Below, in pieces: positions 30,300 to 51,199 of a stretch of 64,000 bases of DNA; within the stretch, counting starts at the first letter, position 1, and each line of letters opens with the position of its first letter. The stretch lies in IMG/VR virus record IMGVR_UViG_3300046492_000163, positions 1-64,000 of that record, one strand, 5' to 3'. Position numbers and translations under genes: made by a program. The DNA comes from a virus (Duplodnaviria > Heunggongvirae > Uroviricota > Caudoviricetes). The notes under the pieces are model-generated. The model was not told the DNA's origin. It worked only from the letters and a program-made list of their open reading frames with translations, and made no database searches.

Positions 30300-31060
30300 A
30301 TCCATGCGTGATTGGGCGAACGCTTACCTGTGTAAACGAACGGGTATGTCCCTAAGTCCGCAGTTCCCTGAGTAACTGAGTAAAGACGGAAGCGTGCAAT
30401 TACGCATTCACTTACGTCCGCAACCGGGCGAGTAATGGCTCACGGGCGTGGTTCCCCACTTCTTCCCTTGGGCGTCCACCTGTGTGAGCACGCACTCGGT
30501 TGCTCAATTACCTAAGTCAGTAGCCAGTTCCCCACGTACCTCAATGAGGAAGTCACCACCTACCTAGGCAAACACCTGGGCAAGTACATACCTGCTTGGG
30601 TGTTTACTCAGACGCATGCGTCCTTACCTGGGGATTTAACTACTCGGGTGGGTAATTGTCAACTTACTCGCACAATTAATGTAATACGCGCCTACCCACG
30701 TACCCAACCAAGCGAGTCCCTAGGGAGGTAGGTAGGTGCATGGTTGGTTGAGTAGTTGAGTGTGGAGGTAGGTACTCAGACAACCACCTAGTTACCCAAA
30801 TAGGTAAGTGAATGGCTACTGGCGTACCTATGGAATTACCTGAATACGCAAGGGATTACGCACCCACACACGTACCCGGTTAGGTAAGCACACAAGTGAT
30901 TACGTGGTTCCTTGCGTGCTGGAGTATGCGGTGACGTACTGGTGTACTGGAGTACCCAAATGAGTAATTACCCAAGTGAGTAGCTGGGTAGGTGGGTAAG
31001 TACCCAAAAGGGTAGATGGGTAAATGGGTAGATACCCAGTGGTATATACAACCTGTTTGA
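30300..31060. repeat. repeat-rich non-coding region upstream of parA (degenerate GGTAAG/TACCCA and ATTAC motifs); candidate centromere
   Basis: no credible ORF; >8 ATTAC(C/G) copies and many GGTA/TACC half-palindromes; perfect TGGGTA-NN-TACCCA units at 31000..31040. Confidence 0.45.
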
Positions 31061-31449
31061 TTTCCCGCTTGGCAGGGTCTGCCACCAGGTGTTGAGGCAG
31101 CAGCCGCAGCCCGAAGTTCTGTGAGCCTCTGTGAGGCCTTATAGGAGGTCGGCAACCCATTAGTAGCCTCGCCCTGGCAACGTCGCCTGGCTGGGCTATA
31201 GTGAAGGCGGGTAAGGTGTTGCCGGACGAATTTTCCCCATAACCCGGCATTCACGCAGATCAGGACGGGGTTGCCTCTGGCGTGCTGAAAGATGCGCGTA
31301 CAGCGAGTACGGACAGACACGGCCTTACCTGAAGCCCTGCCATGACCTGGTGGGGCTTTTTATTGTCCTACAATAATCCACTGTACATCTACACAGTGGT
31401 GGCTATACTGAGTACGTCAACCTCGGGCAGACCGTCAATCTTCCCATTT

Positions 31450-31480
31450 AGCCGCCCCTCACCAGGGCGGCTTTCTTTTG
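31450..31480 (+). terminator. intrinsic terminator
   Basis: GCCGCCC-ctcacca-GGGCGGC + TTTCTTTT. Confidence 0.55.
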
Positions 31481-31488
31481 TCCAATGC

Positions 31489-31580
31489 CGCTACAGGGGG
31501 CCTGGCTCCCAGAATGCCCGTACAGGGGGCTAGCCCCCAGTTTCCTCATAGGGGGGTATGCACTACACGGGGGTGGGTTG
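31489..31580. repeat. ACAGGGGG-core repeat cluster (4 copies, irregular spacing) incl. perfect palindrome GGGGGCTAGCCCCC
   Basis: tacagggggc x2, cataggggggt, acacgggggtg. Confidence 0.4.
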
Positions 31581-31688
31581 CGGTGGTGCCGCCTGTCAGG
31601 TAGGATCGCCGTGCGTGTCCGAGACTGTAGCTTCGACAGGGGTGTACCTGCTCCATCCCGTGGGTACATCAGAACAGAAGCATTGATC

Positions 31689-31720
31689 AGCCGCTTAGCC
31701 CACCTAAGCGGCTTTTCTTT
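31689..31720 (+). terminator. intrinsic terminator
   Basis: AGCCGCTTAG-cccacc-TAAGCGGCT + TTTCTTT. Confidence 0.55.
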
Positions 31721-31857
31721 GCCTGGTGGAAAGGCATCCTGGTGTTGACCTGGTGTTGACCTGGTGTTGGTCCGACCGATGTGGTAACGTGCCTGGGCTT
31801 TCCTTGTGTTGTGTTGTAATGGCAGGGGTGGGGAACTCGTAAACCCCCACCCATTGA

Positions 31858-31890
31858 AAAGGCCGTCCTCTTGGACGGCCTTTTCTTTGT
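31858..31890 (+). terminator. intrinsic terminator
   Basis: GGCCGTCC-tctt-GGACGGCC + TTTTCTTTG. Confidence 0.55.
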
Positions 31891-31923
31891 CCGGTAGAAA
31901 GTCCTGGTCCGACCTGGTTAAAC

Positions 31924-32295
31924 TTGGATAAACCTGGTGAGGGAACAGACATGCCCTACTATGACGGTCGTTGGCATCTATATAGCGAGCAAGAACGCCG
32001 CGAATATGGCGAGCGGAAGCGTGCCGAGTTGAGTAAGAAGTGGCACGCCAAGTGGATCAGTAGACAGGGCCTGAAAGATCGGCTCTGGACTGATAAGGCG
32101 ATCCAGGATTTTCTAGGTAAGCCTCGGGCAGCAGGCGCGATTAAAGCTTGGCTACGCAAGGATGTATTGCGGGCAGAGCGTGGCCCTGAATTCCAGACCT
32201 GGATGGAGAAACGCCGTAGATGGTTGGCGGCACGCGGCAAGCTACCCGCACCATATCCCCTGCCGGACAACGTGTTCCCCATTCGCCCGATGTGA
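31924..32295 (+). CDS. hypothetical basic protein (Arg/Lys/Trp-rich)
   Basis: 123 aa; lies between the two ACAGGGGG repeat clusters; alternative start at MPYYDG. Confidence 0.45.
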   Translation: MDKPGEGTDMPYYDGRWHLYSEQERREYGERKRAELSKKWHAKWISRQGLKDRLWTDKAIQDFLGKPRAAGAIKAWLRKDVLRAERGPEFQTWMEKRRRWLAARGKLPAPYPLPDNVFPIRPM

Positions 32296-32349
32296 TCCAG
32301 CAGAAAGAGAAAAGCCAGCTTTCGCTGGCTTCTCGCTTATCTTTCGCTC

Positions 32350-32733
32350 TTATGCAGCGGCAGACACTTGCTTCCAGCTCAGAACTTCGTCTTTGCCGTA
32401 CTTGCCGATCCACTCTTGAATCTTCTTCTTCAAGATGTTCGCCGCTCGCACGACTTCCCCAGTGTGTGGGTTTTTGTACTCAGTAAAGACTGTGTTCGGT
32501 CCTGCCTTCTTCGGCTTCTTCTCTTTGACCTCTACCACTGGCGGTACATAGTTCGGATCAAGGATCGTGTTCACATCTACCAAGGACATCCCGTATTTGG
32601 CTAGGAGTTCTCGCTGCTCAGCTTCGAAGGCCTGGAGCTTCTGTAGCTGGGGGTTATTCTCAAGCTCTTGAAGGCGGCGCTGTACGGCTTCGAACTCTGC
32701 TCTTGCTTCGTGTAGCTGCTTTACCAATGACAT
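32350..32733 (-). CDS. MvaT/MvaU-family H-NS-like nucleoid-associated protein (xenogeneic silencer homologue)
   Basis: 127 aa; MSL...coiled coil...ILDP...Lys-rich linker...EYKNPHTGEVV...LSW matches P. aeruginosa MvaT (LLDPDA, QYKNPHTGEVIETKGG...ESW), recalled from memory. Confidence 0.85.
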   Translation of the reverse strand: MSLVKQLHEARAEFEAVQRRLQELENNPQLQKLQAFEAEQRELLAKYGMSLVDVNTILDPNYVPPVVEVKEKKPKKAGPNTVFTEYKNPHTGEVVRAANILKKKIQEWIGKYGKDEVLSWKQVSAAA

Positions 32734-32892
32734 TCCGTTGCGTATCCGTGTTTGTTGTTAGGAGGCCGCACTATATCGCCCTGGATGAGACAACGGAAGA
32801 CCTGGTAGAGAGAACCCGATAAGTGAGAGAGAAAATTCCTCGATGCTCGACCTGGTTCTATCTTGATTGACCTGGATAAGCCTGGGTGTTCC

Positions 32893-32985
32893 CACTACAG
32901 GGGGGTGCTGGATTTCCCCACACGGGGGTACTGGATTTGCCCACAGGGGGGTCGCCAATGTCGCCACAGGGGGGTGGCCCCCTCG
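32893..32985. repeat. iteron array: 4 direct repeats, exact 23-bp phasing, core CCACAGGGGGGT
   Basis: GGGGGT ends at 32906, 32929, 32952, 32975; first two units also share (G/A)CTGGATTT. Confidence 0.6.
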
Positions 32986-33181
32986 GGAGTTCTCGCCCTG
33001 GTTGATCCAGGTAAGTCGTCCAGGTTGAGCCAGGTCCCCGCCCAAAATCCCCCGGCATCGAGCATCGATCCCCTGTCTGAACAGCGGACAGGCAGAAGCC
33101 CCCGGCTGGCCCGTAGGCCCCGGATTTGGCGCTATATAGAAGGGAATCGACGGCTGAAAAGAATTTGAAGAAGCGGCTTTA

Positions 33182-33198
33182 CTGTACGATTCATACAG
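33182..33198. promoter_or_regulatory. operator-like palindrome CTGTA-N7-TACAG (copy 1 of 4)
   Basis: CTGTACGATTCATACAG 48 nt upstream of gene 33246. Confidence 0.4.
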
Positions 33199-33245
33199 CC
33201 TAGGCTTGCCCCTATCGAAACGAGAAAGCCCCTAGGGGTGTAGGA

Positions 33246-33779
33246 GTGGCAACCATGCAAACCATGTCTAAGCGTTTCCCTATCAAAGAAGGCCCCCTGC
33301 CTGCCTTCGCCTTCGCTGGCTTCCAATGGCCGCGTTTTGTGGCTGCCTTGCCTCAAGGCTCCAAGGCTAAACGCCTTGCCCGCTATAAGGCGCTAGTGTG
33401 TGGCCCTACCTTCCACGCGCCTATCCCTGTAGTCGGCTCGAATCACTGCATAGGCTTCTATCTGGCTGGCGATGATATGCCCGCCTTGCGTTGGGCGTGG
33501 TGTGATGAAGTTTTCGGCATGGGGCGGGCTATTAACCATACCGGATGGTTTACCGACGAACACGGCGACGGGGAAAAAATCCGTGGCGTTGTTTTTACTC
33601 TAACCCATGGTCGCGGGTATTTGGCCGGGTGGTCTATGGGCCACGGCATGGCGAGCGGCTTAGAGTGCTACGTCTATGCAGATGCTACTAGTGCCGCATA
33701 TGCCGCCGATAGTGCCGCGCAGTTTCTGGCGGAAGTTGAACGCGACAACAACGCAAACAATGCAGACGAAGGGGAGTAA
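33246..33779 (+). CDS. hypothetical protein
   Basis: 177 aa, GTG start per ORF track. Confidence 0.5.
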   Translation: MATMQTMSKRFPIKEGPLPAFAFAGFQWPRFVAALPQGSKAKRLARYKALVCGPTFHAPIPVVGSNHCIGFYLAGDDMPALRWAWCDEVFGMGRAINHTGWFTDEHGDGEKIRGVVFTLTHGRGYLAGWSMGHGMASGLECYVYADATSAAYAADSAAQFLAEVERDNNANNADEGE

Positions 33780-33784
33780 TTAAT

Positions 33785-34246
33785 ATGGCACGTATTAAAA
33801 AAGGTTCTTATGTTCGCCATGCCGCCGTTTGGGTTAAAGGCGCGGCTGTTAGCCATATCTGGCACTTGGATTCTAATCCGGTTGGCTTGCGTGTTTCCCT
33901 GATGGAATGGGAAGACCACCCACACGAAGCAGAGTTAATTAAAGGCGATGGCCGCACCATTAACTTTAAAGTGTTGGCCGCTGGTGAACTTGTGGGGCCA
34001 CGGGTAGACGTTACTTTTGCAACCGCCGAAGTTGTATTAAAGGCAGCAAGGGAACAGGACTTAGACGCGGCTTGCATTATTATCCAAGACGCTATCGGCC
34101 AAACTGACGGCGGTGTCGCTGGAATGTTCTTTTCTGATCTTGACACCCCGGCAGAGTGGGGCACGTTCACAGTATCGGAACGCCTAGAGCGCCTTTGTAA
34201 TTATGTCTTGATGGAAAAGGCATACGCCGGAAACGGGAGTAACTAA
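33785..34246 (+). CDS. hypothetical protein
   Basis: 153 aa. Confidence 0.5.
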   Translation: MARIKKGSYVRHAAVWVKGAAVSHIWHLDSNPVGLRVSLMEWEDHPHEAELIKGDGRTINFKVLAAGELVGPRVDVTFATAEVVLKAAREQDLDAACIIIQDAIGQTDGGVAGMFFSDLDTPAEWGTFTVSERLERLCNYVLMEKAYAGNGSN

Positions 34247-34248
34247 CC

Positions 34249-34539
34249 ATGGTAACTCTACGCAATGAATTGTTGGTGCAAGTTCGGGAGTTTATCCGCC
34301 AGCCTCTAGCGTGGCCGGGATGCTATCCCAAAGTTTTGTTAATGGCAGACGGCGAAGTAATGTGTGCCGTATGTGCCAAAGCGAACTATCGGCTTATCAG
34401 TCAGGCCACGCGGTCTAATGATCGGCGTGATAGCTGGTGTGTTGCTGGTGTAGACTTGTTCCTTGAGGGCTCGCCCCTGTCGTGTGCCCACTGCAATAAG
34501 CCAATCGAATCAGCCTATGGAGAGCCGGAAAATGAGTAA
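34249..34539 (+). CDS. hypothetical Cys-rich protein (CAVCAKANY...CAHCNKP zinc-ribbon-like)
   Basis: 96 aa with two CxxC pairs. Confidence 0.5.
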   Translation: MVTLRNELLVQVREFIRQPLAWPGCYPKVLLMADGEVMCAVCAKANYRLISQATRSNDRRDSWCVAGVDLFLEGSPLSCAHCNKPIESAYGEPENE

Positions 34540-34813
34540 CAACGCCCCGCCAAGCATCCGCGTTTACGATGAACAGGAAGTCAGCCGCAAAGACATGCTA
34601 CGGGCGCTAGAGATAGGGGAAAGCATTATCTTCGCGTGTGCCCCTGATCAGTCCCTTGCACGTCTACAGGCCGGAATTTCTGGCTCCTACCGTGGCAAGG
34701 AGAGCATGTTTAAAGAAGGCCTAGAGCAGCAACGGGGGCTGCTGGTGTTTGAAGGTGAGGTGTCTGTACCTGTTACCCGCGTAACCCGCGTTAAGTCGCC
34801 ACCAGGAAATTAA
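34532..34813 (+). CDS. hypothetical protein
   Basis: start MSNNAPP with GGAG RBS. Confidence 0.45.
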   Translation: MSNNAPPSIRVYDEQEVSRKDMLRALEIGESIIFACAPDQSLARLQAGISGSYRGKESMFKEGLEQQRGLLVFEGEVSVPVTRVTRVKSPPGN

Positions 34814-34846
34814 AAAATTTTCTGCAAAATGGAGAAAATCGCCTTG

Positions 34847-34863
34847 CTGTATGGAAAATACAG
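34847..34863. promoter_or_regulatory. operator-like palindrome CTGTA-N7-TACAG (copy 2), inside 37-bp block shared with copy 4
   Basis: AAAATCGCCTTGCTGTATGGAAAATACAGCGCTACTCTT vs 39386..39422. Confidence 0.45.
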
Positions 34864-34920
34864 CGCTACTCTTCCCCTGTCGATAACGAAAACGCCCCCT
34901 AGGGGGCAAAGGGGTTCTAA

Positions 34921-35517
34921 ATGGCTACTACTTACGAACAGGCTTTTGCTAGCTGGACCGCCGACATCAAGCCACTGGTGATTGATCAGTACGGCGAAGA
35001 CGATGAGGTGGCATTGTCGGAAAGCTGGAACGATTACACCGATAGCCTCTGTAAAGAAGGCGAGTTTTCTGATTTGCAGTATCACCACTGCCCCGCGTGG
35101 GATGATTCAATGCCTGATTCTGATCAGGCGTATATTCTTGAAGCTTTGGGCGTGGCTATGTCCAGCATTAAACTTGCGTCCCGTCCCGATAAACTAGACG
35201 AGAACTTTTCTGCCGATAGTACGCATTGGAAGGTTCTAATTAAACGCGGCAAAAACGAATTTGAAACTTTCTACAGTATGGGCAGCGCCTACACTACGTC
35301 ACCAGATATTGAGGACGTAATGTATAGCCTGTTGTCGGATACTTCGAACGTAGACGGCTATTCGTTCGAAGAATGGGCCAGCGATTTGGGCATGGATACC
35401 GATTCCCGCAAGGCTGAAAAGATGTTCAAGGCTTGCCAAGATACTTTGCTTCAATTGCGTCTGTTGTTCACTGAAAAAGAATTAGACGACTTGCGCGAAG
35501 TTTACCAAGACTTTTGA
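34921..35517 (+). CDS. hypothetical acidic protein
   Basis: 198 aa. Confidence 0.5.
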   Translation: MATTYEQAFASWTADIKPLVIDQYGEDDEVALSESWNDYTDSLCKEGEFSDLQYHHCPAWDDSMPDSDQAYILEALGVAMSSIKLASRPDKLDENFSADSTHWKVLIKRGKNEFETFYSMGSAYTTSPDIEDVMYSLLSDTSNVDGYSFEEWASDLGMDTDSRKAEKMFKACQDTLLQLRLLFTEKELDDLREVYQDF

Positions 35518-35595
35518 GTAGCCTTTTAGATAGCCCGCCTCGGGCTATCCATAAAGTTTATTCGCAACGCTGTTAATTAGTTGAGGGTTAACACC

Positions 35596-36177
35596 ATGCA
35601 GACTACACAAACTTACGCCCACTATGTCGCGGTTGTTTCCGCCCGTGGTGTTACGCCTGTAACAGAAGTTCAGTTTAACGCTCTGCAAACTCTGCCGCGT
35701 GTGGCTGATGTAAACATGCCCCGTACGCTAAACTACGCTATCGGCGTAGCGTTGGAAGCGGGCGATAATACCGGGGCTGCTAGTTTGATCAGACAGGGCG
35801 ACGAATATACGCAAGAATGTTGGCAGATGTTTACAGAAGAGGGGGACCATCTCCCGGCAGAAGGCTTGCATGCGAATATAGAACAATGGGCAAAGTTTGG
35901 GCGTGACGAAGTACGCCCTTTAAATATTGCTTACATGTTGGACTTTGACGGTAATTCGCCAAAGGATCAAACTTGCTTTTCAATCGGCAAACAAAACTTT
36001 TTCTTTAATGGGGATAGTATTTGCCAGTGGGATAATGAACGGGAGTGGGATTTTCTCTGCTTCCACTTCTTGTCTAATCCAACTTTGAAACAAATCCTAG
36101 TTATAACTATCGGCTGCTTTGATGTTGAAAGTTTGGCGGATATGTTGGCAGGCGACGAAGTAAAACAAGACGGATAG
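35596..36177 (+). CDS. hypothetical protein
   Basis: start MQTTQTY with GAGGG RBS. Confidence 0.5.
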   Translation: MQTTQTYAHYVAVVSARGVTPVTEVQFNALQTLPRVADVNMPRTLNYAIGVALEAGDNTGAASLIRQGDEYTQECWQMFTEEGDHLPAEGLHANIEQWAKFGRDEVRPLNIAYMLDFDGNSPKDQTCFSIGKQNFFFNGDSICQWDNEREWDFLCFHFLSNPTLKQILVITIGCFDVESLADMLAGDEVKQDG

Positions 36178-36185
36178 GAGGTTCT

Positions 36186-36452
36186 ATGGTGTGGCCAGTT
36201 AAACCCGTTTTAATTGAAGGCGACACGGTTAATTTAAAGGCGTTAACGCCTCGGTTAGCCGCAATAATCAAAACTTGTTTAGGCAAGTTGGACAGGACGG
36301 TGTTAGAACCGTTGGAAGCGGAACAGATACAGAGTCTGTATGCCGCTCTAAGCGGGGAAGATTGGGCGTTAGTTGTAAAGGGTAGGATAGGGGACTATGG
36401 CCCGCCAATAGAGTATATATTGGCCCTGCCACCTTCCCCTAAACGCAAATAA
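36186..36452 (+). CDS. hypothetical protein
   Basis: 88 aa. Confidence 0.5.
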   Translation: MVWPVKPVLIEGDTVNLKALTPRLAAIIKTCLGKLDRTVLEPLEAEQIQSLYAALSGEDWALVVKGRIGDYGPPIEYILALPPSPKRK

Positions 36453-36479
36453 GCAATTGTATATATAGAGGTGGGCTTT

Positions 36480-36716
36480 ATGTCTGTATTTGCTGAAATC
36501 GCGTTGGTGGTAACGTTGTGTACTTCGTCGGGTGGCATACCTGCCGAGTCCTGTAACAACGAAGCCCCGGAAAGCTGGACAAGCGCTAGCGTTGCGGAGG
36601 CTTCGCAAGACTGGCAGGCCTGCAAACGTACCGAGGCCGCGTATCTGGCTCGCCCCGGTGTATCCAAGGCCGTTTGCCGGTATACTCGGTACGCCGGGAG
36701 TGCTGTTCATGAATGA
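36480..36716 (+). CDS. hypothetical protein
   Basis: start MSVFAEIALVV. Confidence 0.4.
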   Translation: MSVFAEIALVVTLCTSSGGIPAESCNNEAPESWTSASVAEASQDWQACKRTEAAYLARPGVSKAVCRYTRYAGSAVHE

Positions 36717-36840
36717 ATTCCCGGCGTTTATCAGGCTCAAGATTAGCGGGTATGAACTAATAGCGTTCTCGCTTGCTGATATCCCTAGAGGCGTGGAGTT
36801 CATCGTCATAGGGCGTAATGTTAAGTTTAAGAAGCGGTAG
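36712..36840 (+). CDS. small ORF (42 aa), ATGA-coupled
   Basis: MNEFPAFIRLKISGYELIAF... Confidence 0.25.
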   Translation, partial: NEFPAFIRLKISGYELIAFSLADIPRGVEFIVIGRNVKFKKR

Positions 36841-36936
36841 AAATAGCCCTGCCCTAGTGGTGGGGCTTTCAATAAGAAAGTTCGCCAACACTGCAAATTC
36901 CTGGGTAATTCCTGGAGAGAAAGGGACAGTTTAAAA

Positions 36937-37320
36937 GTGAAAAAGAAAGCGGATAATTACGAACGTTTGCAGTTGGGTTTGCACTTGTGGCAAGGGATGG
37001 CGCCGCACCTCGGGCGGTCTTTCAAAGAATCAAAGGCTAGTTTTCCGATACGTGTAAGCGAGCATGATAAACACTTTGACCTGTTTAAAACTACCGATGT
37101 CTGGAACTATGACGGCTGGCTTATTACGTCGTCCAGCGTTGCCCATGGTGTCGCCCGTTGTAACGTCCGCAAGGGTACACAAGTCGGGCTATTAGTCGTT
37201 GAGGCTGACGCTATGTTCTACCATGATAATCCGTCTCTACCGTTCGAAGAGACGTCGCAAAACAGTTCAGGGGAAGCCGGCGACACGCTAGGGCAGGCCA
37301 AGCGAAGCCCTAAAAAATAA
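36937..37320 (+). CDS. hypothetical protein
   Basis: 127 aa. Confidence 0.45.
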   Translation: MKKKADNYERLQLGLHLWQGMAPHLGRSFKESKASFPIRVSEHDKHFDLFKTTDVWNYDGWLITSSSVAHGVARCNVRKGTQVGLLVVEADAMFYHDNPSLPFEETSQNSSGEAGDTLGQAKRSPKK

Positions 37321-37324
37321 TGTG

Positions 37325-37341
37325 CTGTATGGGGTTTACAG
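37325..37341. promoter_or_regulatory. operator-like palindrome CTGTA-N7-TACAG (copy 3; TGCTGTA/TACAGCA perfect 7-bp arms)
   Basis: TGCTGTATGGGGTTTACAGCA upstream of gene 37423. Confidence 0.45.
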
Positions 37342-37422
37342 CATGGCTGTAGGCCCCTATAGTGTTAGGTAGATAGACAGCAAGGCCGTTAGTCCCGACA
37401 GTCAGTTAAAGGAGTTTTAAAA

Positions 37423-38064
37423 ATGGCACTAGTTACCCTTCCGTTTTCCGGCTTCTATCAGTCGCTGCATGATGGCGAGATAGACCGCGAAATTGCCTCG
37501 ATGTTCTCAGACCGGGATACCGGCTGTGATCGTAACCAAGGCTTAGAAAGTGCGCTTTTCGATAAGTGCGACTTTCGCCAAGTTCATCAGGCTTATACAC
37601 AAGCCTATGCGGAAAAGTTCGCACAAGAATTCAAAGTTAAAGGGCTCAAGTTTGAAAGTATGTCCAGCCCGAAAGAATATAACTTTGAAACAGACCGCGT
37701 ATTTGCACTAGTGTCTAAAAAGGAATTGACGCGCATTTATCGTAACTTAGATAAAAGCGTTTTTGCTGATGTCTTAAAAGACAAGTTCACAAGTTGCGAC
37801 GGTTTTAGTTCGTTCTACTCTAACGATGTGAAAGATTGGGGGCCAATCGCAAGTTGGGACCATAACCAATACGGCGCTATTCTGTTAGCGTTGGCTATTG
37901 AAGAAAGTACCAACGGCGAGTTTGACCAATGGGCGGAATATAACTTGTGCGAATCCTTTAGCGGTAACGGCGATTTAACCAGATGGATTGAAGCCGCTAC
38001 ACCTAACGTTGAACGCCTGTATAAAATTCACGACTACCTTGAAACACGTTCAGGGCGGGTTTAA
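37423..38064 (+). CDS. hypothetical protein
   Basis: 213 aa. Confidence 0.5.
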   Translation: MALVTLPFSGFYQSLHDGEIDREIASMFSDRDTGCDRNQGLESALFDKCDFRQVHQAYTQAYAEKFAQEFKVKGLKFESMSSPKEYNFETDRVFALVSKKELTRIYRNLDKSVFADVLKDKFTSCDGFSSFYSNDVKDWGPIASWDHNQYGAILLALAIEESTNGEFDQWAEYNLCESFSGNGDLTRWIEAATPNVERLYKIHDYLETRSGRV

Positions 38065-38067
38065 CTA

Positions 38068-38256
38068 ATGCGCGCCATTATTACACTTGACCGTTACGAC
38101 GGATCGCAAGGCAAGTCAAAGGAAATAGACTTAGAGTCTTTTCCAATGCGTGAACTTATTTACGCTCTGATGGAATCCGACGTTTGCGGGTTTACAGTTA
38201 CCAAAGTTAACACCCCGGAAAAACTTATTCGCAAACTTGACGAACTAAGAGGTTAA
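38068..38256 (+). CDS. hypothetical small protein
   Basis: 62 aa. Confidence 0.45.
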   Translation: MRAIITLDRYDGSQGKSKEIDLESFPMRELIYALMESDVCGFTVTKVNTPEKLIRKLDELRG

Positions 38257-38258
38257 TC

Positions 38259-38792
38259 ATGCCTATTATCGTTTCTCAAACTTTCCAGATCGTTACAGAA
38301 GAATCCGCCGAACATGGCGAAGCGGCAGAGTCTGGCTTCGACTTTGAAAATCAAAGTTATGGCTTCCGTGAACTTGTGGAGTATATCAAGTCGGAAGGGT
38401 TCACTAATTCCTCCGATTCTCACGGTGTACCGCGTTGGCTTACTAGCGAAGTTGTACAGGACCGGGCATGGCTTGAACGCGGCGAAGATAAAACTTTTTC
38501 CCTACACCCTGCCAGTGACGCCCGTTCTTTGCGTTATTGGGAGAAAGCCTGCCGTGCCGCTGACATCCTAAAAGATGCTAAATATTGGCGCGGCATGATC
38601 GTTGGTATACATGCCAACGGCTACCGGGCGGAAGTCACGTATAAAACACCGCACGGCTACAGCAAAGGCCTAGCCACGCACAACCCGACTAAGGGCGTAG
38701 GCCCCGAGGGGGTTTTGTTCGTTTGTGTAGATAGTTTCACAAACCGCGTACATCTGGACAATGTAATCAGCGTTAAACGGGTGGTACAGTAG
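38259..38792 (+). CDS. hypothetical protein
   Basis: 177 aa. Confidence 0.5.
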   Translation: MPIIVSQTFQIVTEESAEHGEAAESGFDFENQSYGFRELVEYIKSEGFTNSSDSHGVPRWLTSEVVQDRAWLERGEDKTFSLHPASDARSLRYWEKACRAADILKDAKYWRGMIVGIHANGYRAEVTYKTPHGYSKGLATHNPTKGVGPEGVLFVCVDSFTNRVHLDNVISVKRVVQ

Positions 38793-38808
38793 GCGCCGTT
38801 TTACGGCG

Positions 38809-39123
38809 ATGCAGTTAGAAGTGTGGATTTATAACCTAACCATTGGTGGGCATATGGACAGTAAAGTTTTCAGCGTTGCCGAATTAAACAGCGTGCTAAG
38901 CCAGACCTTCAAAACGAAGCGTCTGATTAATACCCCCGATTGCGTGGGGTACATCGTCAAGCTTGACCGGCCTATGTTGCCCGTCACGTCGGTGGATACC
39001 GAGGTTAGCGGGGGCGATTTGATGGCGATGCTCTCCAAGCTGAACGAATGGGAAAAGACCATAGAAGAGGTGCGCAAGGGGATCTTGCACATCATAGAGA
39101 GCCAGCTACAGACGCCCAAATAA
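38809..39123 (+). CDS. hypothetical protein (start uncertain, alt 38854)
   Basis: 104 aa. Confidence 0.45.
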   Translation: MQLEVWIYNLTIGGHMDSKVFSVAELNSVLSQTFKTKRLINTPDCVGYIVKLDRPMLPVTSVDTEVSGGDLMAMLSKLNEWEKTIEEVRKGILHIIESQLQTPK

Positions 39124-39136
39124 GCGAGCCGGGATA

Positions 39137-39166
39137 AACCCGCCCTAATCCCCTAGGGCGGGTTTT
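39137..39166 (+). terminator. intrinsic terminator
   Basis: CCCGCCCTA-atcccc-TAGGGCGGG + TTTT. Confidence 0.6.
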
Positions 39167-39395
39167 GGCGTTGGTGGGAAATAGGCCTAGGGCGAGCAAG
39201 GGCGCTCTAACGTTCGTTGCTCTATCAGCCGCTGGCGTCCCTCTAGGGGCCAAAGAATCGACGGCGGGTTACTTGTTCAACGTTCACCAGGGCGAGCCCA
39301 GGACGAACGACAAAAAAGCTAATGAAACCGGGGGTTTTGCCCTTTCCGGGGCCTTTTTCGTGTCCGGGGTAAAAATAAATTGATAAATCGCCTTG

Positions 39396-39412
39396 CTGTA
39401 TGAAAAATACAG
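39396..39412. promoter_or_regulatory. operator-like palindrome CTGTA-N7-TACAG (copy 4)
   Basis: TGCTGTATGAAAAATACAGCA; TTGATA upstream could be a -35. Confidence 0.45.
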
Positions 39413-39474
39413 CACTACTCTATGCATCAGGGGTTAGGCGAAGGGCCTACCCGGTAGGCTCTAAGGGTGACAAA

Positions 39475-39684
39475 ATGCGTGTTTTCCAAGCCTTTGTTTT
39501 CTTCATGATGTCGCTGATGCTGATTAACCAATACGCGCCAATGATTGGCGACCACTACCGGGCCAAGGAAGCGGCAGAAAAGGCCGCTGTGTTCCAAGCG
39601 AAACAGGAAGCAAGCCGCAAGGCCCGTATGTGTGCCGAGTTGCCGTTTCTCCGTGTTTGCAAGCCTCCACACCACGTCCGTTAA
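39475..39684 (+). CDS. small membrane/secreted protein
   Basis: start MRVFQAFVFFMMSLML with AAGGGTGA RBS. Confidence 0.45.
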   Translation: MRVFQAFVFFMMSLMLINQYAPMIGDHYRAKEAAEKAAVFQAKQEASRKARMCAELPFLRVCKPPHHVR

Positions 39685-39698
39685 TAAGGGGCTACATC

Positions 39699-40046
39699 AT
39701 GAACGAACTCTATAACCCGGACGACAGCTTCCCCCCGTTCGATAATATCGGGTCTTGCGTTGGAACCGAAAACGAAGGCCTTTGTTCGTGCTGCATTCCG
39801 GCGCCTAAACGCTCCTACTTCCTTAATCCAATCCTTGTATTGGCCGCAAGTGCCGCCCGTGGCGGTAACTCTATGTTCGCTGATTCGCTGTTAGATGTTG
39901 GCCGTGGTCGTCGCGATTGTAAGTCAATCCGTAAGAGCATTACCCGCTTGCGTGGTAACTGTGATTTGAATATCGCCCGCATTACTGAAAGTTCGTTGTT
40001 GCTTACTGGCTCGCCTTCCCTTGTCCGTCCTAAAGTAGGGGCTTAA
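39699..40046 (+). CDS. hypothetical Cys-containing protein
   Basis: start MNELYNPDD with AAGGGG RBS. Confidence 0.45.
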   Translation: MNELYNPDDSFPPFDNIGSCVGTENEGLCSCCIPAPKRSYFLNPILVLAASAARGGNSMFADSLLDVGRGRRDCKSIRKSITRLRGNCDLNIARITESSLLLTGSPSLVRPKVGA

Positions 40047-40048
40047 TC

Positions 40049-40633
40049 ATGATTAATACAAAGAACGCTCGTGATCTTGATATGTACGATGTTGGCGTAT
40101 TGTTCGCCGCCATGGTCGGCGTTAATTCTTCGGAACTTGCCGAAGAGGCCGACCGTTCGTTGGTTCAAATCGGCTATGACGAAGGGCTGGCCCGTTGCAC
40201 TTTCGCCGTTCAAGTTGTTGCGGAGAATCATCGCGACGAAGGCGACAACCGCGACGGTTGCATGTGGCTGGAAAGTTACGACGATGAGCACGAAGGCGGG
40301 CTCGCCCATCAATTGTTCATGTTGGACGTGAACAAAGAAGAGAACGCCGAACTGTTTCATGAAGTTGTTAAAGGCGTGGCCCTAGAGTGGCTGCATGAAG
40401 TTCAGGGCCTTACACTGTTCGCCGTTAATGACTTGGCGGGGGAAACTCTGTTCTGTGTTCAGGCTGAAACAACGCAGGAGGCTTTTGATTGTATCCCTGT
40501 CGCTCTAGAGGACAAGTTTGAAGTAGGGAACGTATACACCAGCATCGCTGAAACTTACGAAGATTACACTGTGTATCGCATGCCTGAACATCAGGCCGAC
40601 ACTTTCGCCGTCCTGATCAAGAAGGCGGGCTAA
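40049..40633 (+). CDS. hypothetical acidic protein
   Basis: 194 aa. Confidence 0.5.
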   Translation: MINTKNARDLDMYDVGVLFAAMVGVNSSELAEEADRSLVQIGYDEGLARCTFAVQVVAENHRDEGDNRDGCMWLESYDDEHEGGLAHQLFMLDVNKEENAELFHEVVKGVALEWLHEVQGLTLFAVNDLAGETLFCVQAETTQEAFDCIPVALEDKFEVGNVYTSIAETYEDYTVYRMPEHQADTFAVLIKKAG

Positions 40634-40635
40634 TC

Positions 40636-40761
40636 ATGTTTATTAAATTTCTCACTAGTGACATGGCGTTGCACTTGCTCGCCCTTGTTATTCTCGGGTC
40701 CGTTGTTGCTGGTGTGTTTGTTCACTTCGTCCGCAAGGCAATTAAGGAGGGTTCGCTGTGA
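40636..40761 (+). CDS. small membrane peptide (41 aa)
   Basis: MFIKFLTSDMALHLLALVILGSVVAGVFV...; tightly coupled to both neighbours. Confidence 0.3.
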   Translation: MFIKFLTSDMALHLLALVILGSVVAGVFVHFVRKAIKEGSL

Positions 40762-40988
40762 TTACCCGGCCTGATGTCTCGGGCTTTACTGCCCACCGGA
40801 TCAGGGAAGAGGCAGCAACACAGCCCATTGGGTTTGTGTTAGATTTTCCCGCCTGTTTCAGTGTAACGATGGTCGTTATAGGTGGCGAAGTTCTCGCCGC
40901 CCATGATCAGCAAGACGACGATGTAACTAAGTTGGTTCGCGAAGTTTGTGCCCCGGTGTTGCGTGCGTTGCCACGCTTCCCGGTGTAA
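40758..40988 (+). CDS. hypothetical protein (GTG start)
   Basis: 76 aa. Confidence 0.4.
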   Translation: MITRPDVSGFTAHRIREEAATQPIGFVLDFPACFSVTMVVIGGEVLAAHDQQDDDVTKLVREVCAPVLRALPRFPV

Positions 40989-41035
40989 CATGTAGTAAAG
41001 CAAGAAACTAAGTTCAATCAAACGGAGTCAATACC

Positions 41036-41674
41036 ATGGCAACAACTAAGAGCATTAAAACGGTTCAACAGATCGAAGCCGGGGGCGTCCACTATGGCTT
41101 GATCATGCAAGACGAAAGCGGGCTGTTCTATCGCCAGAAAGGGAAAAGCGGCCTGCATAACCCCAAGCATGACGGCATGCATTGCCCTGACATCGCCGCT
41201 GTAAAACAGGCCCTGTTGAACTCGGGCGATGAGCAGCAAGTAAAGGCAGGCCACGCACTCAAGGCGCCTAAAGCGGCTCCAAAGGCCAAGGAGGAAGCCC
41301 CGAAAGAGGCAGCCCCCAAGGCAACTAAAGAACCCGTGAAACAGCCAGCCAAAGAACCGGCTAAGCCTGCCCACGCCGTGGAAGTTCCCCCGGCAGGCGC
41401 CTCTAAAGTCCGTTACAAGTTGGTTGAAGCGTCCGGTGCCGTTGGCACGCATTATTGGCTCTATGCGGGCTATGAACACGCAACCGGCTTTAAATGGAAC
41501 GGGTCCGGCGGTTTTATGTTCCTGAACATGAACGCTGTAAACGACTTTCTACGTTCTAACGGTATCGACGGAAATATTGAAGTTGAAACCGTAGACGTTA
41601 CAAACGGAAGTTACGACCCTAACAAGGGCGTTGTAGCGCTCTATAAAGTTGGCCAACAAAGTCTCAGTTTGTAA
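41036..41674 (+). CDS. two-domain protein with Lys/Pro/Ala-rich linker
   Basis: 212 aa; APKAAPKAKEEAPKEAAPKATKEPVKQPAKEPAKP linker. Confidence 0.5.
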   Translation: MATTKSIKTVQQIEAGGVHYGLIMQDESGLFYRQKGKSGLHNPKHDGMHCPDIAAVKQALLNSGDEQQVKAGHALKAPKAAPKAKEEAPKEAAPKATKEPVKQPAKEPAKPAHAVEVPPAGASKVRYKLVEASGAVGTHYWLYAGYEHATGFKWNGSGGFMFLNMNAVNDFLRSNGIDGNIEVETVDVTNGSYDPNKGVVALYKVGQQSLSL

Positions 41675-41684
41675 GGGGGATAAC

Positions 41685-41948
41685 ATGAGTATTGAAATTT
41701 CGAAAGCCATTGAAACCTTCGTTAGCGCTAACCAAAACTTGCTCGGTAATCTTTGGGGTCGCTGGCAGGATGAAAAAGAATATGAAGACATCAACGAGTA
41801 TGGCGCGGTAATCGCTAAGAATTTTCCAGAAGGCTGGAAATTAATCAAATCTGCCAAACGTCCATTCGGGGTTACGGTTCAAATCGAACAAGAGCAATGG
41901 CAAGTCTCTGTAACTGGCCGCTCCATGGGTTGGAAGCGTATAAAATAG
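41685..41948 (+). CDS. hypothetical protein
   Basis: start MSIEISKA with AAGGGGGA RBS. Confidence 0.45.
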   Translation: MSIEISKAIETFVSANQNLLGNLWGRWQDEKEYEDINEYGAVIAKNFPEGWKLIKSAKRPFGVTVQIEQEQWQVSVTGRSMGWKRIK

Positions 41949-41965
41949 AACCCCAACGAAAGACC

Positions 41966-41994
41966 ACGCCGGGGCCAATGCCCCGGCTTTTTTA
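41966..41994 (+). terminator. intrinsic terminator
   Basis: GCCGGGGC-caat-GCCCCGGC + TTTTTT. Confidence 0.65.
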
Positions 41995-42148
41995 TGTCTG
42001 TTCCTGGGCTCGCCCTGGAGGAAGTCCCGAACACCCGAAGAAACACCCCCGCCAAGCCCCTGTGGATCGATTCCAGGAATTCCCCCGTCACCAGGTCATT
42101 ACCCCACCACTTTCTAGGCTCGCCCTGTGTAGGCCTCTATAGGAGCCC

Positions 42149-42740
42149 CTAGCAGCTAGGCCCCCAACTTAACTAATTACATATCTATTAATATGTGGCG
42201 TAGACGCCACGGGTAATTATCGCTAAGACGTACCGTCTTTCTTGTAATAGAGGGGGCAGGGGCCAGAAAGCCCCCTAATTAAAAAGCGTTCAATGCCGCG
42301 TAATACGCGGGGTGTAGCGTTATTCCGTGACGTGAACGTCACATATATACACCAGTCTATTGCGTAGCAATAAGTTAGTTACACTGCCCCATATACACTA
42401 CCCCATATAACTCCCTGCATAGTATAACTTCCGACTGTTAGTCGGGTATATGTCTCTATATATGTATTGAACTAACTTAGTTCAAATCCCCGTATTGCTT
42501 GCAATACAGTTAATTAACTATGACATATAGCCTATATCTTGGCGTAGCTAATCGGGACGATTGGGGTTAAGCCAAGCCTTTTTTCTATGGATTAAATTAT
42601 TTATATAGTTCCACGTGGAACAATTCGAACAGACACGCTAGTGTCAGAGTAAACCTAGACAGATAGCCCCGAGTCAGGGAGAATCTAGTGGAATCTGGCA
42701 CAGCCCAGGAATAGAGTCAGCTAATCGATCCTGGTGGATC
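42149..42740. repeat. AT-rich non-coding region densely packed with short perfect palindromes (>=12)
   Basis: GTGGCGTAGACGCCAC, AAGACGTACCGTCTT, CCGCGTAATACGCGG, GTGACGTGAACGTCAC, TATTGCGTAGCAATA, CCGACTGTTAGTCGG, TTGAACTAACTTAGTTCAA, GTATTGCTTGCAATAC, GTTAATTAAC, TTCCACGTGGAA, GACACGCTAGTGTC, GATCCTGGTGGATC. Confidence 0.5.
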
Positions 42741-42798
42741 AATAGAGATAAGACCCCCATATAACCATCCGACCTAGATAACACCAGGGTTAGAACGT

Positions 42799-42826
42799 TG
42801 TTCCCATATTAGGTATTATGTTAAAT
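42799..42826. other. dif-like 28-mer (candidate Xer recombination site)
   Basis: TGTTCCCATAT-TAGGTA-TTATGTTAAAT; right arm identical (11/11) to the XerD-binding arm of E. coli dif, ~21/28 overall to the Pseudomonas dif consensus (from memory). Confidence 0.45.
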
Positions 42827-43075
42827 CCCGGCCTAGTCGGCCCAGGTCAACTGACGAACGGTACTTGCGATATTTCTAGATTGTGCTAGCCAGGCCGGGG
42901 CCAGAAGCAAGAGCGGGTTTAACACCGAGCCACAGTTGGATGGATTCCAGGTATTACACCGAGCCACAGATTGTCGATATCTGGAAGTTACAAACTGTCC
43001 TGGTTAGTCCGTCCTGGTTGACCTGGCTGATAGTTGATATTCGCCCCAGTTGATATTCGGCAGGCGTAAGTAAGG

Positions 43076-43363
43076 GTGGTTTTAAAATTTGGAAAGTGGT
43101 ACACTTTTAAAATGGGAGACGTGCCCTCCAAAACAAAGTGGGAGTTTGCAATGGAAGCCAAGCTAGGCCGCAAGTACAGGATCGGTGGAGATGGTTGGTG
43201 GTACCTGGAACCAGGCGTACCCATCCTGGTGACGGATGAAATCCAGGTGAGTAGCCGCAATCCCACGGGCGTAGTTATAGAAGTGAAACGTGATGGTGAG
43301 TTACTGGGGCATAAGGCGATGCACCCCACCTTCTTCCAGCAAGACTTTGAGTTGATCGATTAA
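43076..43363 (+). CDS. hypothetical protein (start uncertain: GTG 43076, or ATG 43151 with GGGAG RBS)
   Basis: 95 aa. Confidence 0.4.
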   Translation: MVLKFGKWYTFKMGDVPSKTKWEFAMEAKLGRKYRIGGDGWWYLEPGVPILVTDEIQVSSRNPTGVVIEVKRDGELLGHKAMHPTFFQQDFELID

Positions 43364-45264: not shown

Positions 45265-46200
45265 ATGATCGATTTTCAGGCTGGTGTAGATTCTTTCTGC
45301 GAATACCTGCGACTTGAACGTCAAGCGTCTGTTCACACTATCCAAGCCCGTCGTCGTGACCTGGCTAAAGTGATTGCCTACTGCAAGGCCTGCCATATCC
45401 CTGACTGGTCCTCCTTTGAGGCTGCGAACATGCGGGGCTTGGTCGCAAAGATGAACGAGAATGGTCAAGAGGCAAACAGCGTCAAGCGTCTGATGTCTTC
45501 CGTCCGTAGATTGTTCCGCCACCTCAAGTTGCAGAACGTGATCGCTGATGGTCATAACCCGCTTCATAAAGTGGACACACCAAAGGGTCACAAACGGCTT
45601 CCTCGGCACCTGCTCTCCTATGAGTCTGGCGACATGCTCGATGCTGAAGTGGAAGACACTTTCATTGCCCGTCGTGACCATGCCATTGTTGAACTTTTCT
45701 ACTCTTCTGGCCTTCGCCTCACTGAACTAGTGAACCTCGACATGGAGCACGTAGACTTCAACGACAAGTTGGTAACGGTAGTTGGCAAGGGCAATAAGAC
45801 CCGGATCGTTCCAGTGGGTCGCAAGGCTCTGGAGTCGCTTCAGGAATGGTTCAAGCACCGCGACCTGGTGGAAGCAAAGGGCAAGGCGATCTTCATCAGC
45901 CAGCAGGGCCAACGCCTCACCGGGCGGGCTGTCCGCATGCGGGTAGAAGCCATGGGCAAGAGCAAGCTGGGCCGTCACCTGTACCCGCACATGCTCCGTC
46001 ATTCCTTTGCCACAGATATGTTGTCTTCGTGCCACGACTTGCGTGTTGTACAGGAGCTGCTCGGTCACGCAGACATCAAGACCACGCAGATTTACACGCA
46101 CTTGGATTACGGCCATCTTGCAGGGGTGTACAACAATGCTCACCCACGGGCTAAACGCATTACAACTGATTCCGATATTGGAAAGAGCCATGAACTATAA
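45265..46200 (+). CDS. XerC/XerD-like tyrosine recombinase
   Basis: 311 aa; C-terminus HMLRHSFATDMLSSCHDLRVVQELLGHADIKTTQIYTHLDYGHLAGVYNNAHPRAKR near-identical in pattern to XerC; GGGAG RBS. Confidence 0.85.
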   Translation: MIDFQAGVDSFCEYLRLERQASVHTIQARRRDLAKVIAYCKACHIPDWSSFEAANMRGLVAKMNENGQEANSVKRLMSSVRRLFRHLKLQNVIADGHNPLHKVDTPKGHKRLPRHLLSYESGDMLDAEVEDTFIARRDHAIVELFYSSGLRLTELVNLDMEHVDFNDKLVTVVGKGNKTRIVPVGRKALESLQEWFKHRDLVEAKGKAIFISQQGQRLTGRAVRMRVEAMGKSKLGRHLYPHMLRHSFATDMLSSCHDLRVVQELLGHADIKTTQIYTHLDYGHLAGVYNNAHPRAKRITTDSDIGKSHEL

Positions 46201-49716: not shown

Positions 49717-49938
49717 CTACGGGTAGGCCCGCTTAAACGCTGCTGTCGCTTGCCAGTTCAATACAGAGTGAGCATAGACCATGTTACCTGGATAAGTCTT
49801 GTTATACATGGCAAAATCCAAGGAGGCTTGGGGCTTACTGATCGAGAAAAAGTCTACCAACTGGCGGGGTGCTACGAACCCGTAGCTCGCCAGAAGGAAG
49901 TCAATGAGCCGCAGCCGTTGTTCAAGGGCGTAGGTCAT
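49717..49938 (-). CDS. small HTH protein, tandem paralogue A
   Basis: MTYALEQRLRLIDFLLASYG... Confidence 0.5.
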   Translation of the reverse strand: MTYALEQRLRLIDFLLASYGFVAPRQLVDFFSISKPQASLDFAMYNKTYPGNMVYAHSVLNWQATAAFKRAYP

Positions 49939-50156
49939 GGATAGACACGCTTAAAGTCAGCGGTGGCTAGCCAGGATTTCTCAGAACTCCCGTACACCAT
50001 GTTGCTGGGGTGCAATTCGTTGTACAGGGCGAAATCGCGGGTTGCTTGCGGGAGGCTGATCCCGAAGTAATCGATTAAATGGCGTGGACCCACACTGGCA
50101 TAGTTAGCCAGCAGGAAATCAATTAGCCGCATGCGTTGCTCGATGGCGTAAGTCAT
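49935..50156 (-). CDS. small HTH protein, tandem paralogue B
   Basis: MTYAIEQRMRLIDFLLANYA...; ~60% identical to A. Confidence 0.5.
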   Translation of the reverse strand: MTYAIEQRMRLIDFLLANYASVGPRHLIDYFGISLPQATRDFALYNELHPSNMVYGSSEKSWLATADFKRVYP

Positions 50157-50863: not shown

Positions 50864-51199
50864 CTAGAATCGACTGCCAAAAACCATGTCTTTCAGTGCG
50901 AACGCACGCATAGCGCCCTTGTCGTGATCGATGGCGTACATCAACCACTGCTCTTCTGGGTGGTGCTCCGTCTTGCCGAACTCAAATCGAATAGGAGTGG
51001 CCCGACGTTCGGAAAATTCGCCTCGGTAGTTGGTGTAACCGAAGGAAAATACGTCGCCCTTCGCTCCTGCCCAGTGCTGATCGTTGATTTCCAGGCACTG
51101 GCGGCAGAAGCCACGCTTGATTTCACGCTCAGTCTCGGAATACCCACGGCAGTGCATGTAAAGTTGGCACTCTGGTGGGGCTTTTGTTATATTAGTCAT
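50864..51199 (-). CDS. zinc-ribbon protein (CQLYMHC...CRQC)
   Basis: start MTNITKAPPE with GGAGAG RBS. Confidence 0.45.
   Translation of the reverse strand: MTNITKAPPECQLYMHCRGYSETEREIKRGFCRQCLEINDQHWAGAKGDVFSFGYTNYRGEFSERRATPIRFEFGKTEHHPEEQWLMYAIDHDKGAMRAFALKDMVFGSRF

Follow-up and report, generated by a model that had tools for sequence, protein, structure and literature searches.

What is the function of a short palindrome that recurs at the start of one transcription unit after another in the early region of a phage? This question is raised by a stretch of 64,000 nucleotides (the window in what follows) from a virus of the Caudoviricetes, positions 1 to 64,000 of the IMG/VR record IMGVR_UViG_3300046492_000163, in which the 17-bp element CTGTA-N7-TACAG occurs four times within a span of 6.2 kb, at the start of a rightward gene block. 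The palindrome seems to be an operator for a dimeric protein that would co-regulate four early promoters, most likely by repression, a reading based on sequence comparison to which a probability of about 0.6 can be given. The sites are well above chance expectation, their arms are conserved around a centre that is free to vary, and they coincide with conserved promoter-like hexamers. These hexamers are probably real promoters, and the effect of the putative operator would most likely be repression, since the site fills the promoter spacer and overlaps the −35 element, which is the classic layout for steric repression.

The exact pattern is found at 33182-33198, 34847-34863, 37325-37341, and 39396-39412, that is, in four copies in the window compared with 0.12 expected from dinucleotide-preserving shuffles (n = 100), none of which contained at least four. 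This count agrees with the positions given in a first-pass annotation of the same DNA, made from the sequence alone. Three further details of that annotation are borne out: the spacing of nine bases between CTGT and ACAG, the perfect arms of three copies (GCTGTA/TACAGC in copies 2, 3, and 4; copy 1 has ACTGTA/TACAGC), and the 37-bp conserved block that surrounds copies 2 and 4 (34836-34872 and 39385-39421, 95% identical on alignment). When one mismatch was allowed, a single extra match appeared in the window, which is intragenic, at 35657, and compatible with chance. The annotation had also proposed a genome-wide scan for the motif; no copy with up to one mismatch was found in the 17 kb beyond both window ends (same element; L039 and L040) and, thus, the four sites are the only ones in approximately 81 of the 106.7 kb of the element. 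All four copies are intergenic and are located 57-82 nt 5′ of the called start codons at 33255, 34921, 37423, and 39475. It had been claimed that each copy follows a terminator or gene end and precedes a gene, which is correct for copy 2 (34 nt past a stop codon), copy 3 (5 nt past a stop codon), and copy 4 (with a terminator-like hairpin 5′ of the palindrome, at 39328-39352), but not for copy 1, which is preceded by a non-coding, iteron-like region and no gene end.

All four sites are present at orthologous positions in a syntenic relative, the 63-kb contig L011 (sites s1 to s4: TTACAGTAAGCGGCTTACCGCA, TTGCGGTAAGCGGATTACAGCA, ATGCTGTAAGGGGTTTACAGCA, and TTGCTGTAAGCGGATTACAGCA), where the product of the gene after copy 2 is 77% identical in amino acids, and site 4 is kept in a third relative, L045, as TTGCAGTATGGTGGATACAGT. 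A consensus built on these nine sites (four from the window, four from L011, and one from L045), equivalent to 18 half-sites, is TGCTGTAW-N5-WTACAGCA, with 8-bp inverted repeats and a 5-bp spacer, so that the whole operator extends over 21 bp, as in TGCTGTATGAAAAATACAGCA. C-8, G-6, T-5, and A-4 of the half-site are invariant in 18/18, and T-7, the T of CTGT, changes to A or G in 4/18. Between the window and L011, the arms are identical at 37/40 positions and the central seven bases at only 12/28 (Fisher p = 1.3e-5). The centres of sites 2 and 4 are TGGAAAA and TGAAAAA in the window and AGCGGAT twice in L011, and both sites are closer to each other within each genome than to their own orthologues, which indicates homogenization of the whole promoter module. 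The order of the genes between the sites is the same in both genomes. Protein-guided searches identified as carriers of the palindrome only L011 (with L012 and L046) and L045, whereas relatives at 65% amino acid identity or less have other palindromes instead. Exact-pattern scans of IMG/VR with TTGCKGTA-N7-TACAGCRCTAC and with the site-3 block returned no matches, and the same scans of GTDB genomes and metagenomes returned lone, taxonomically scattered matches that were judged to be due to chance.

The overlap with promoters was analyzed with a sigma-70 position weight matrix (PWM) in eight intergenic regions, four each from the window and L011; random windows score 5.6 at the median and 9.1 at the 90th percentile. 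The best match overlaps the palindrome in seven of the eight regions, in a register common to both phages. Predicted early promoter 1 (33178..33206, + strand) is composed of TTTACT, a 17-bp spacer, and TAGGCT, contains the palindrome CTGTACGATTCATACAG at 33182-33198, and precedes the operon 33255-34813; its score of 8.5 is the best of its intergenic region, and L011 has TTTACA-17-TAGGCT in the same register. Predicted promoters 2 (34844..34872, + strand; palindrome CTGTATGGAAAATACAG; operon 34921-37320) and 4 (39393..39421, + strand; palindrome CTGTATGAAAAATACAG; operon 39475-41948) both read TTGCTG, a 17-bp spacer, and TACTCT. The orthologue of promoter 2 in L011 is TTGCGG-17-TACGCT, and those of promoter 4 are TTGCTG-17-TACTCT in L011 and TTGCAG-16-TAGAGT in L045, the latter with a different −10 at the same place. 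Predicted promoter 3 (37324..37363, + strand; palindrome CTGTATGGGGTTTACAG; operon 37423-39123) is organized in another way: the right arm of the palindrome supplies the −35, TTTACA (37335-37340), which is followed by a 17-bp spacer with a third half-site, GCTGTA (37346-37351), and by the −10, TATAGT (37358-37363). It matches the consensus at 10/12 positions and its PWM score of 13.3 is at the top of the random-window distribution; L011 has a nearly identical block, in which the −10 is TACACT. The 25 bp 5′ of the sites are A/T-rich (0.56-0.80, compared with a background of 0.49). An alternative promoter at copy 4, TTGATA-17-AAAAAT, was rejected because it scores 11.6 in the window but 1.7 in L011 and is thus unconserved, and a second, N6-spaced palindrome at copy 3 (CTGTAGGCCCCTATAG) is better taken as one additional GCTGTA half-site.

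A similar arrangement is observed in more distant phages. The promoters before homologous genes in Burkholderia phage AH2 (TTGACA-ctgctaaacagtgacaac-TAAGAT) and in L013 (TTGACA-cccggcgcgggtttctt-TAATGT) are near-consensus, and in each of them a palindrome (TTGACActgctaaacagtgacaacTAAGAT and TTGACAcccggcgcgggtttcttTAATGT, respectively) begins inside the −35. Likewise, L001 (IMG/VR 3300047444_000299, a 183-kb contig) contains about 16 copies per 20 kb of GGGGTTGCATTTGATGCAACCCC...TATACT. Phage-specific operator/regulator pairs would be expected to leave just such a pattern, in which the promoter position is fixed and the palindrome changes from lineage to lineage. The early-promoter module of L001 is highly regular in its own right: in positions 1-20630, each of the approximately 16 copies per 20 kb combines a palindrome, GGGGTTG(C/T)ATTTGATGCAACCCC, over the −35, a TATACT −10, and a conserved leader, ACACCAACCGAAAC...ATG, and the motif TTGCATCAAAT is present in both orientations.

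Under the operator reading, both arms would be contacted, in successive major grooves, by a two-fold-symmetric DNA-binding protein. Its site would fill the spacer between the −35 and −10 and overlap the −35 at promoters 1, 2, and 4, while at promoter 3 it would cover the −35, with the extra half-site in the spacer. The bound dimer could then exclude RNA polymerase, which would silence or shut off all four units jointly. Nevertheless, several features weigh against this proposal. The hexamers of promoters 1, 2, and 4 are weak, with PWM scores of 7.6-9.8 that are above the random median of 5.6 but, in all cases except one, below the 90th percentile of 9.1; thus, the assignment of these three promoters is based on conservation and on analogy with the relatives. 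Promoter 3 differs from the other three in where the operator lies with respect to the hexamers. Moreover, conserved arms around a free centre would equally suit an RNA stem-loop.

According to that RNA-based alternative, which seems improbable, the palindrome would act as a stem-loop in read-through transcripts, either as a boxB-like loader of antitermination factors, a processing site, or a stabilizer. Eight sites from the window and L011 were folded as RNA, site 4 of L045 being left out, and five of them gave hairpins (−9.6 to −10.6 kcal/mol; z-scores between −3.1 and −5.0). In copies 2 and 4, a 7-bp stem can close a pentaloop, GGAAA and GAAAA, respectively, the latter being the loop of boxB in lambda nutL, and pairing is preserved by the T:A to A:T change that distinguishes the window from L011 at ±3. 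However, the hairpin is lost or weak in the other three sites (copy 1 of the window and s1 and s2 of L011; −3.2 to −6.1 kcal/mol, z-scores of −0.2 to −0.9), with s1 folding differently, and site 4 of L045 also has an unpaired arm position. Substitutions in the arms create A-C, G-A, and A-A oppositions that are uncompensated, and the loops are variable (GAAAA, GGAAA, GCGGA, GGGGT, and GGTGG). In addition, under the conserved promoter register the palindrome is 5′ of the transcription start at three sites, and the sites located past terminators would be unable to load an antiterminator for those terminators; an Rfam search yielded no family match. Thus, the uncompensated arm changes, the variable loops, and the loss of the hairpin favour a double-stranded DNA site for a symmetric protein. 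Intrinsic terminators were also discarded, as the stems contain only 3/7 G-C pairs and no T-run follows on the + strand, copy 3 alone obtaining a score, and only on the − strand. A DNA site could serve recombination instead of transcription if the palindromes were core sites for the XerC/D-like tyrosine recombinase encoded nearby (45265-46200) and marked exchangeable gene cassettes. This would be in line with short inverted arms around a 5-7-bp centre and with the nearly identical centres of sites 2 and 4 within each genome, like those of recombining partners. It is, nevertheless, hardly credible: there is no sign of cassette shuffling, as the window and L011 share one order of the genes that separate the sites, dif, lox, and att cores have far longer arms, the centres of sites 1 and 3 are different, and the likeness of sites 2 and 4 spans the whole −35 to −10 module, so that promoter homogenization fits better.

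If the site is bound by a transcription factor, the sign of its effect may also be questioned. The main rival of repression, with a minor but real chance, is that the palindrome is an activator site, or a promoter-specificity element for a phage factor that takes over the recognition of the −35 or aids in it. The weak hexamers at three of the four promoters would need a bound protein to fire, and class II activators and sigma appropriators act at the −35, which the palindrome overlaps; the arm TGCTGTA also loosely resembles the T4 MotA box, TGCTTtA. By contrast, at promoters 1, 2, and 4 the centre of the palindrome is near −24 in a 17-bp spacer, which is the position of a steric repressor and not that of known activators, and the MerR-type model is ruled out by this spacer, since MerR-type activation needs spacers of 19-20 bp. 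Moreover, promoter 3 is near-consensus and should need no activation, and the near-consensus promoters of the relatives carry palindromes at the same place. As for the identity of the binder, the first-pass annotation had pointed to a CI-type or LexA-like repressor. The operator-like character of the site stands, given its promoter overlap, conserved arms, and free centre, but neither of the two proteins is supported as the binder. Were the sites SOS boxes of a variant type, recognized by the LexA of the host or by an N9-tolerant LexA paralogue, DNA damage would induce the early block. In agreement with this, the CTGTAT/ATACAG arms of copies 2 and 4 are the outer part of the gammaproteobacterial consensus TACTGTATATATATACAGTA, and a host factor would account for the same arms being kept in three phages. 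However, all sites are CTGT-N9-ACAG, one base longer than every canonical N8 box, and the two DNA-binding domains of LexA touch each other on DNA, fixing the spacing. The T of CTGT, near-invariant in SOS boxes, is the base replaced in 4/18 half-sites, the centre can be GC-rich (GCGGA, GGTGG), and the sole CTGT-N8-ACAG of the window (31381) is at chance frequency and absent from L011. A literature search for the CTGT-N9-ACAG motif and spacing retrieved nothing. LexA is, thus, an unlikely binder because of the N9 spacing, the variable T, and the GC-rich centres, and induction of the early block by DNA damage through these sites is quite unlikely. Regarding CI, no CI, HTH_3, or S24-type repressor was identified among the approximately 55 open reading frames (ORFs) of the window that were scanned with Pfam. 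Other known sites were discarded as well: the L011 sites (TGTAAGCGGATTACA) match lacO1 at 13/17 positions, but neither the window nor L045 retains their central GCGG; a sigma-54 site (TGG...TTGC) does not fit in spacing; and a TyrR box (TGTAA-N8-TTACA) and a CRP site (TGTGA-N6-TCACA) have the wrong spacing.

Returning to the operator reading, the leading candidates for its binding protein are two small proteins encoded at 49717-50156, although their assignment is tentative. Candidate A (49935..50156, − strand) is a 73-amino-acid winged helix of the BrxR/CapW type, with recognition segment GISLPQATRDFA and without WYL or WCX domains, and candidate B (49717..49938, − strand) is its tandem paralogue, with recognition segment SISKPQASLDFA; the two are identical at 47/73 residues (64%). 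Protein A matches PDB entry 7tb5 with E = 1.9e-8 and also 7tb6, 7qfz, and 7t8k, in the N-terminal winged helix of CapW/BrxR, and the alignment of protein B spans residues 23-92 of 7tb5, covering the ISxPQAS segment. The S/Q/S residues of this segment are needed for DNA binding by CapW (PMC9122588), and the S..Q.S pattern is present in A and B as S..Q.S/T. Their homologues carry the precomputed Pfam assignment PF26109 (WHD_BrxR). Both proteins end where the winged helix-turn-helix ends (residue 92 of the 299 of the chain), and all 11 homologues found have 72-92 amino acids. The relatives that keep the operator encode a 75%-identical homologue of A with an identical recognition segment. Among the candidate regulators listed in the first-pass annotation, the region 49717-50156 comes out as the best, through the match to BrxR/CapW that the annotation did not contain, whereas the gene at 28166 encodes a RepL-type replication protein and 51192-51536 has two weak helix-turn-helix (HTH) matches.

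The published operators of these regulators have a comparable architecture. The BrxR operator of Acinetobacter is ATACCGTAAA-AATAA-TTTACTGTAT, over the −35 (PMC9122589), that of E. fergusonii BrxR is GAAACCTACTG-AAAAA-CAGTAGGTTGC (PMC9122601), and Ec CapW has a 21-bp imperfect palindrome within TAAAAACTGATCGTATAATAATGCTACGCT, over the −10 (PMC11662680, PMC9122588). The odd-centred 8-N5-8 geometry of the phage sites agrees with these 10-N5-10, 11-N5-11, and 21-bp arrangements. BrxR/CapW operators overlap −35 or −10 elements; the hexamers overlapped by the phage sites are −35-like and conserved but belong to predicted promoters. Several points speak against this pairing. BrxR/CapW operators have five A/T-rich central base pairs with a narrowed minor groove, whereas the centres of the phage sites are not consistently A/T-rich, being GGAAA and GAAAA in copies 2 and 4 but GGGGT, GCGGA, GCGGC, and GGTGG elsewhere. 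The GTA...TAC cores also have 2 bp less between them than those of the Acinetobacter BrxR and Ec CapW sites. Proteins A and B lack the WYL/WCX scaffold that dimerizes BrxR and CapW, and their genes are 10-17 kb from the sites, in an oppositely transcribed block. Furthermore, CTGTA-N7-TACAG is absent from L041-L044, phages with similar stand-alone WHD_BrxR domains, and, since the operator-bearing phages are all close relatives, the co-occurrence of protein and site does not discriminate. The binder could, about equally likely, be a repressor encoded in the approximately 26 kb of the element beyond the 81 kb examined. Autoregulation by A and B was discarded, as there is no operator-like site near the candidate regulator genes.

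Shared operators in phage early promoters are textbook biology, and the added value of this case is the link to stand-alone BrxR/CapW winged-helix proteins. The putative four-promoter regulon gives a handle on about 21 early genes, with one 21-bp site, four invariant bases, and few candidate binders. If proteins A and B were the binders, the early-gene switch would be run by the bare DNA-binding domain of the regulators of BREX, CBASS, and other defence islands, with the sensor absent and the spacing 2 bp tighter; they might further occupy host BrxR/CapW operators and so keep defence systems off. Their binding would show how phages use, or first used, the DNA-binding module of defence-island regulators, and would provide a minimal, sensor-less system for studying the DNA recognition and spacing rules of the domain. 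No description of domain-only BrxR/CapW phage proteins was found in a literature search. These proteins could be phage regulators or decoys for the operators of host defence islands. Domain-only genes similar to A and B are located, in the phage contigs L041-L044, directly after the integrase gene and before an MvaT-like gene. One of these contigs, L042, from an unrelated phage with a stand-alone WHD_BrxR gene, contains an identical 19-bp palindrome, GTCCGTTGTCCGCACGGAC, at 19163-19181 and 20095-20113, before two rightward genes, which may be its own operator.

The element that carries the sites has a size of 106,769 bp in a Logan contig and of 106,866 bp in a JGI assembly that encodes an identical early-gene product, and it appears to be circular, since the window can be placed on the contig at two offsets about 106,739 bp apart. 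Its gene content includes siphovirus tail genes, with a lambda-like tape measure among them, together with genes for ParA, a RepL-like protein, and the XerC/D-like recombinase, and the element carries iteron-like repeats. A leftward block for replication and nucleotide metabolism comprises RNR, ThyX, an exonuclease, DNA polymerase A, a primase-helicase, NAPRTase, and PRPP synthetase. We read the element as a plasmid-like siphovirus of a lineage without a close annotated or cultured relative, its plasmid lifestyle being suggested by ParA, the RepL-like protein, the iterons, and the Xer-like recombinase. Megablast searches for close relatives found none in a plasmid collection and, elsewhere, nothing closer than 96 bp of Burkholderia phage AH2 at 81% identity, and the DNA polymerase shares only about 50% identity with its counterparts in Pseudomonas phages. 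The rightward block (33.2-47.7 kb) begins with the four sites, and the four transcription units that they would control (33255..41948, + strand) contain, according to gene calls and Pfam and PHROG scans, about 21 small genes of unassigned function and without Pfam matches; homologues are found in Aeromonas phages and in Burkholderia phages AH2 and BcepNazgul, likewise in early regions.

Other features surround the early promoters. An MvaT-like xenogeneic silencer (PF22055) is encoded by the element at 32350-32733 on the − strand, divergently from the first early promoter, and is kept in L011; MvaT-like genes are also neighbours of the WHD_BrxR-only genes of L041-L044. A phage-borne MvaT-like silencer hints at a Pseudomonas-like host. 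About 40 bp 5′ of the first early promoter there is a box, CTATATAGAAGGGA (33133-33147 in the window, 7757-7771 in L011, and 1019-1033 in L013), conserved across three phages whose operators differ, which may be a host-factor site or an origin boundary. In the leaders 3′ of the operators, a short G+C hairpin (GCCCCTAGGGGC or GCCCCGTAGGGC) is located just before the Shine-Dalgarno sequence, at 33225-33240 and 34890-34905 in the window and at 7855-7870, 9976-9990, and 13083-13097 in L011; it may be an mRNA-stabilizing or translation-control element common to several early units.

Two large non-coding regions flank or split the block. The region between parA and the early genes (30300-33060) contains dense short repeats at 30300-31030 (of the GGTAGGT, GAGTAA, and TACCCAA types), ACAGGGGG repeats with a 23-bp spacing (31485-31540 and 32897-32975), CCTGGT iterons, and four terminator-like hairpins, and is probably a plasmid origin, centromere, and copy-control region; a similar layout is found in L011 at 5500-7700. 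At 31378-31475, a 22-bp palindrome with a canonical CTGT-N8-ACAG, CCACTGTACATCTACACAGTGG, overlaps a promoter-like TGTACA-16-TATACT, and a strong terminator (31450-31472) lies about 40 nt 3′ of it, which suggests a small RNA of about 65 nt. The −10, the transcribed stretch, and the terminator of this small-RNA locus are kept in L011 (6820-6910), but the left half of the palindrome is not. The second region is a 1.2-kb non-coding stretch that splits the rightward block (41950-43150), with an A/T-rich core, many short palindromes (e.g., gtgacgtgaacgtcac and attgcgtagcaat), and more CCTGG repeats; it is kept, as judged by eye, in L045 (reverse strand, about 17500-16480) and might act in cis, as a second (lytic) origin or otherwise. 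Segments 39280-39319 and 41986-42025 are linked as the halves of a 40-nt inverted repeat.

Among known systems, the sites recall the C1 operators of phage P1, in which one short site also recurs at several operon promoters of a plasmid-like phage, with a single regulator for many units. P1 C1 operators are asymmetric 17-mers, whereas the present site is a two-fold palindrome, with only four copies that are all in one 6.2-kb block, and no C1 homologue was identified among the ORFs scanned. With the cI/Cro operators of lambda, the sites share a 17-bp, odd-centred pseudo-palindrome over the −35 and −10 of early promoters, which are predicted ones in the present case. However, the lambda operators are tandem triplets that flank the repressor gene, while here single sites are located over four promoters, with no adjacent cI/cro pair; the divergent neighbour of site 1 is the MvaT-like gene and not a repressor gene of the cI/cro type. 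The resemblance to the SOS box of LexA is in the outer CTGT(A)/(T)ACAG bases and the position over promoter elements, but the spacing is N9 instead of N8, the second base is variable, and the centre is sometimes GC-rich. Similar in layout are L001 and the AH2-like Casjensviridae, which have homologous early genes behind promoters with a palindrome that runs from inside the −35 into the spacer; nevertheless, the palindromes are lineage-specific (TTGCATTTGATGCAA in L001, CACTGCTAAACAGTG in AH2, and ACCCGGCGCGGGT in L013), and the density of L001, about 16 copies per 20 kb, contrasts with the four copies here. Finally, the BrxR/CapW operators also consist of two inverted repeats 5 bp apart, centred on a base pair; they are placed over core promoter elements, which in the phage are predicted, and the half-site of Acinetobacter BrxR, C(C/A)GTAAA, is resembled by the C-N-G-T-A-W core of the phage half-site. 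The element itself encodes homologues of their DNA-binding domain with the S..Q.S contact segment. The phage proteins differ from BrxR and CapW in being 73-amino-acid winged helices without the ssDNA-sensing WYL domain or the WCX dimer scaffold, and, whereas BrxR and CapW have single operators beside the regulator gene, the phage has four putative ones, located on its early promoters.

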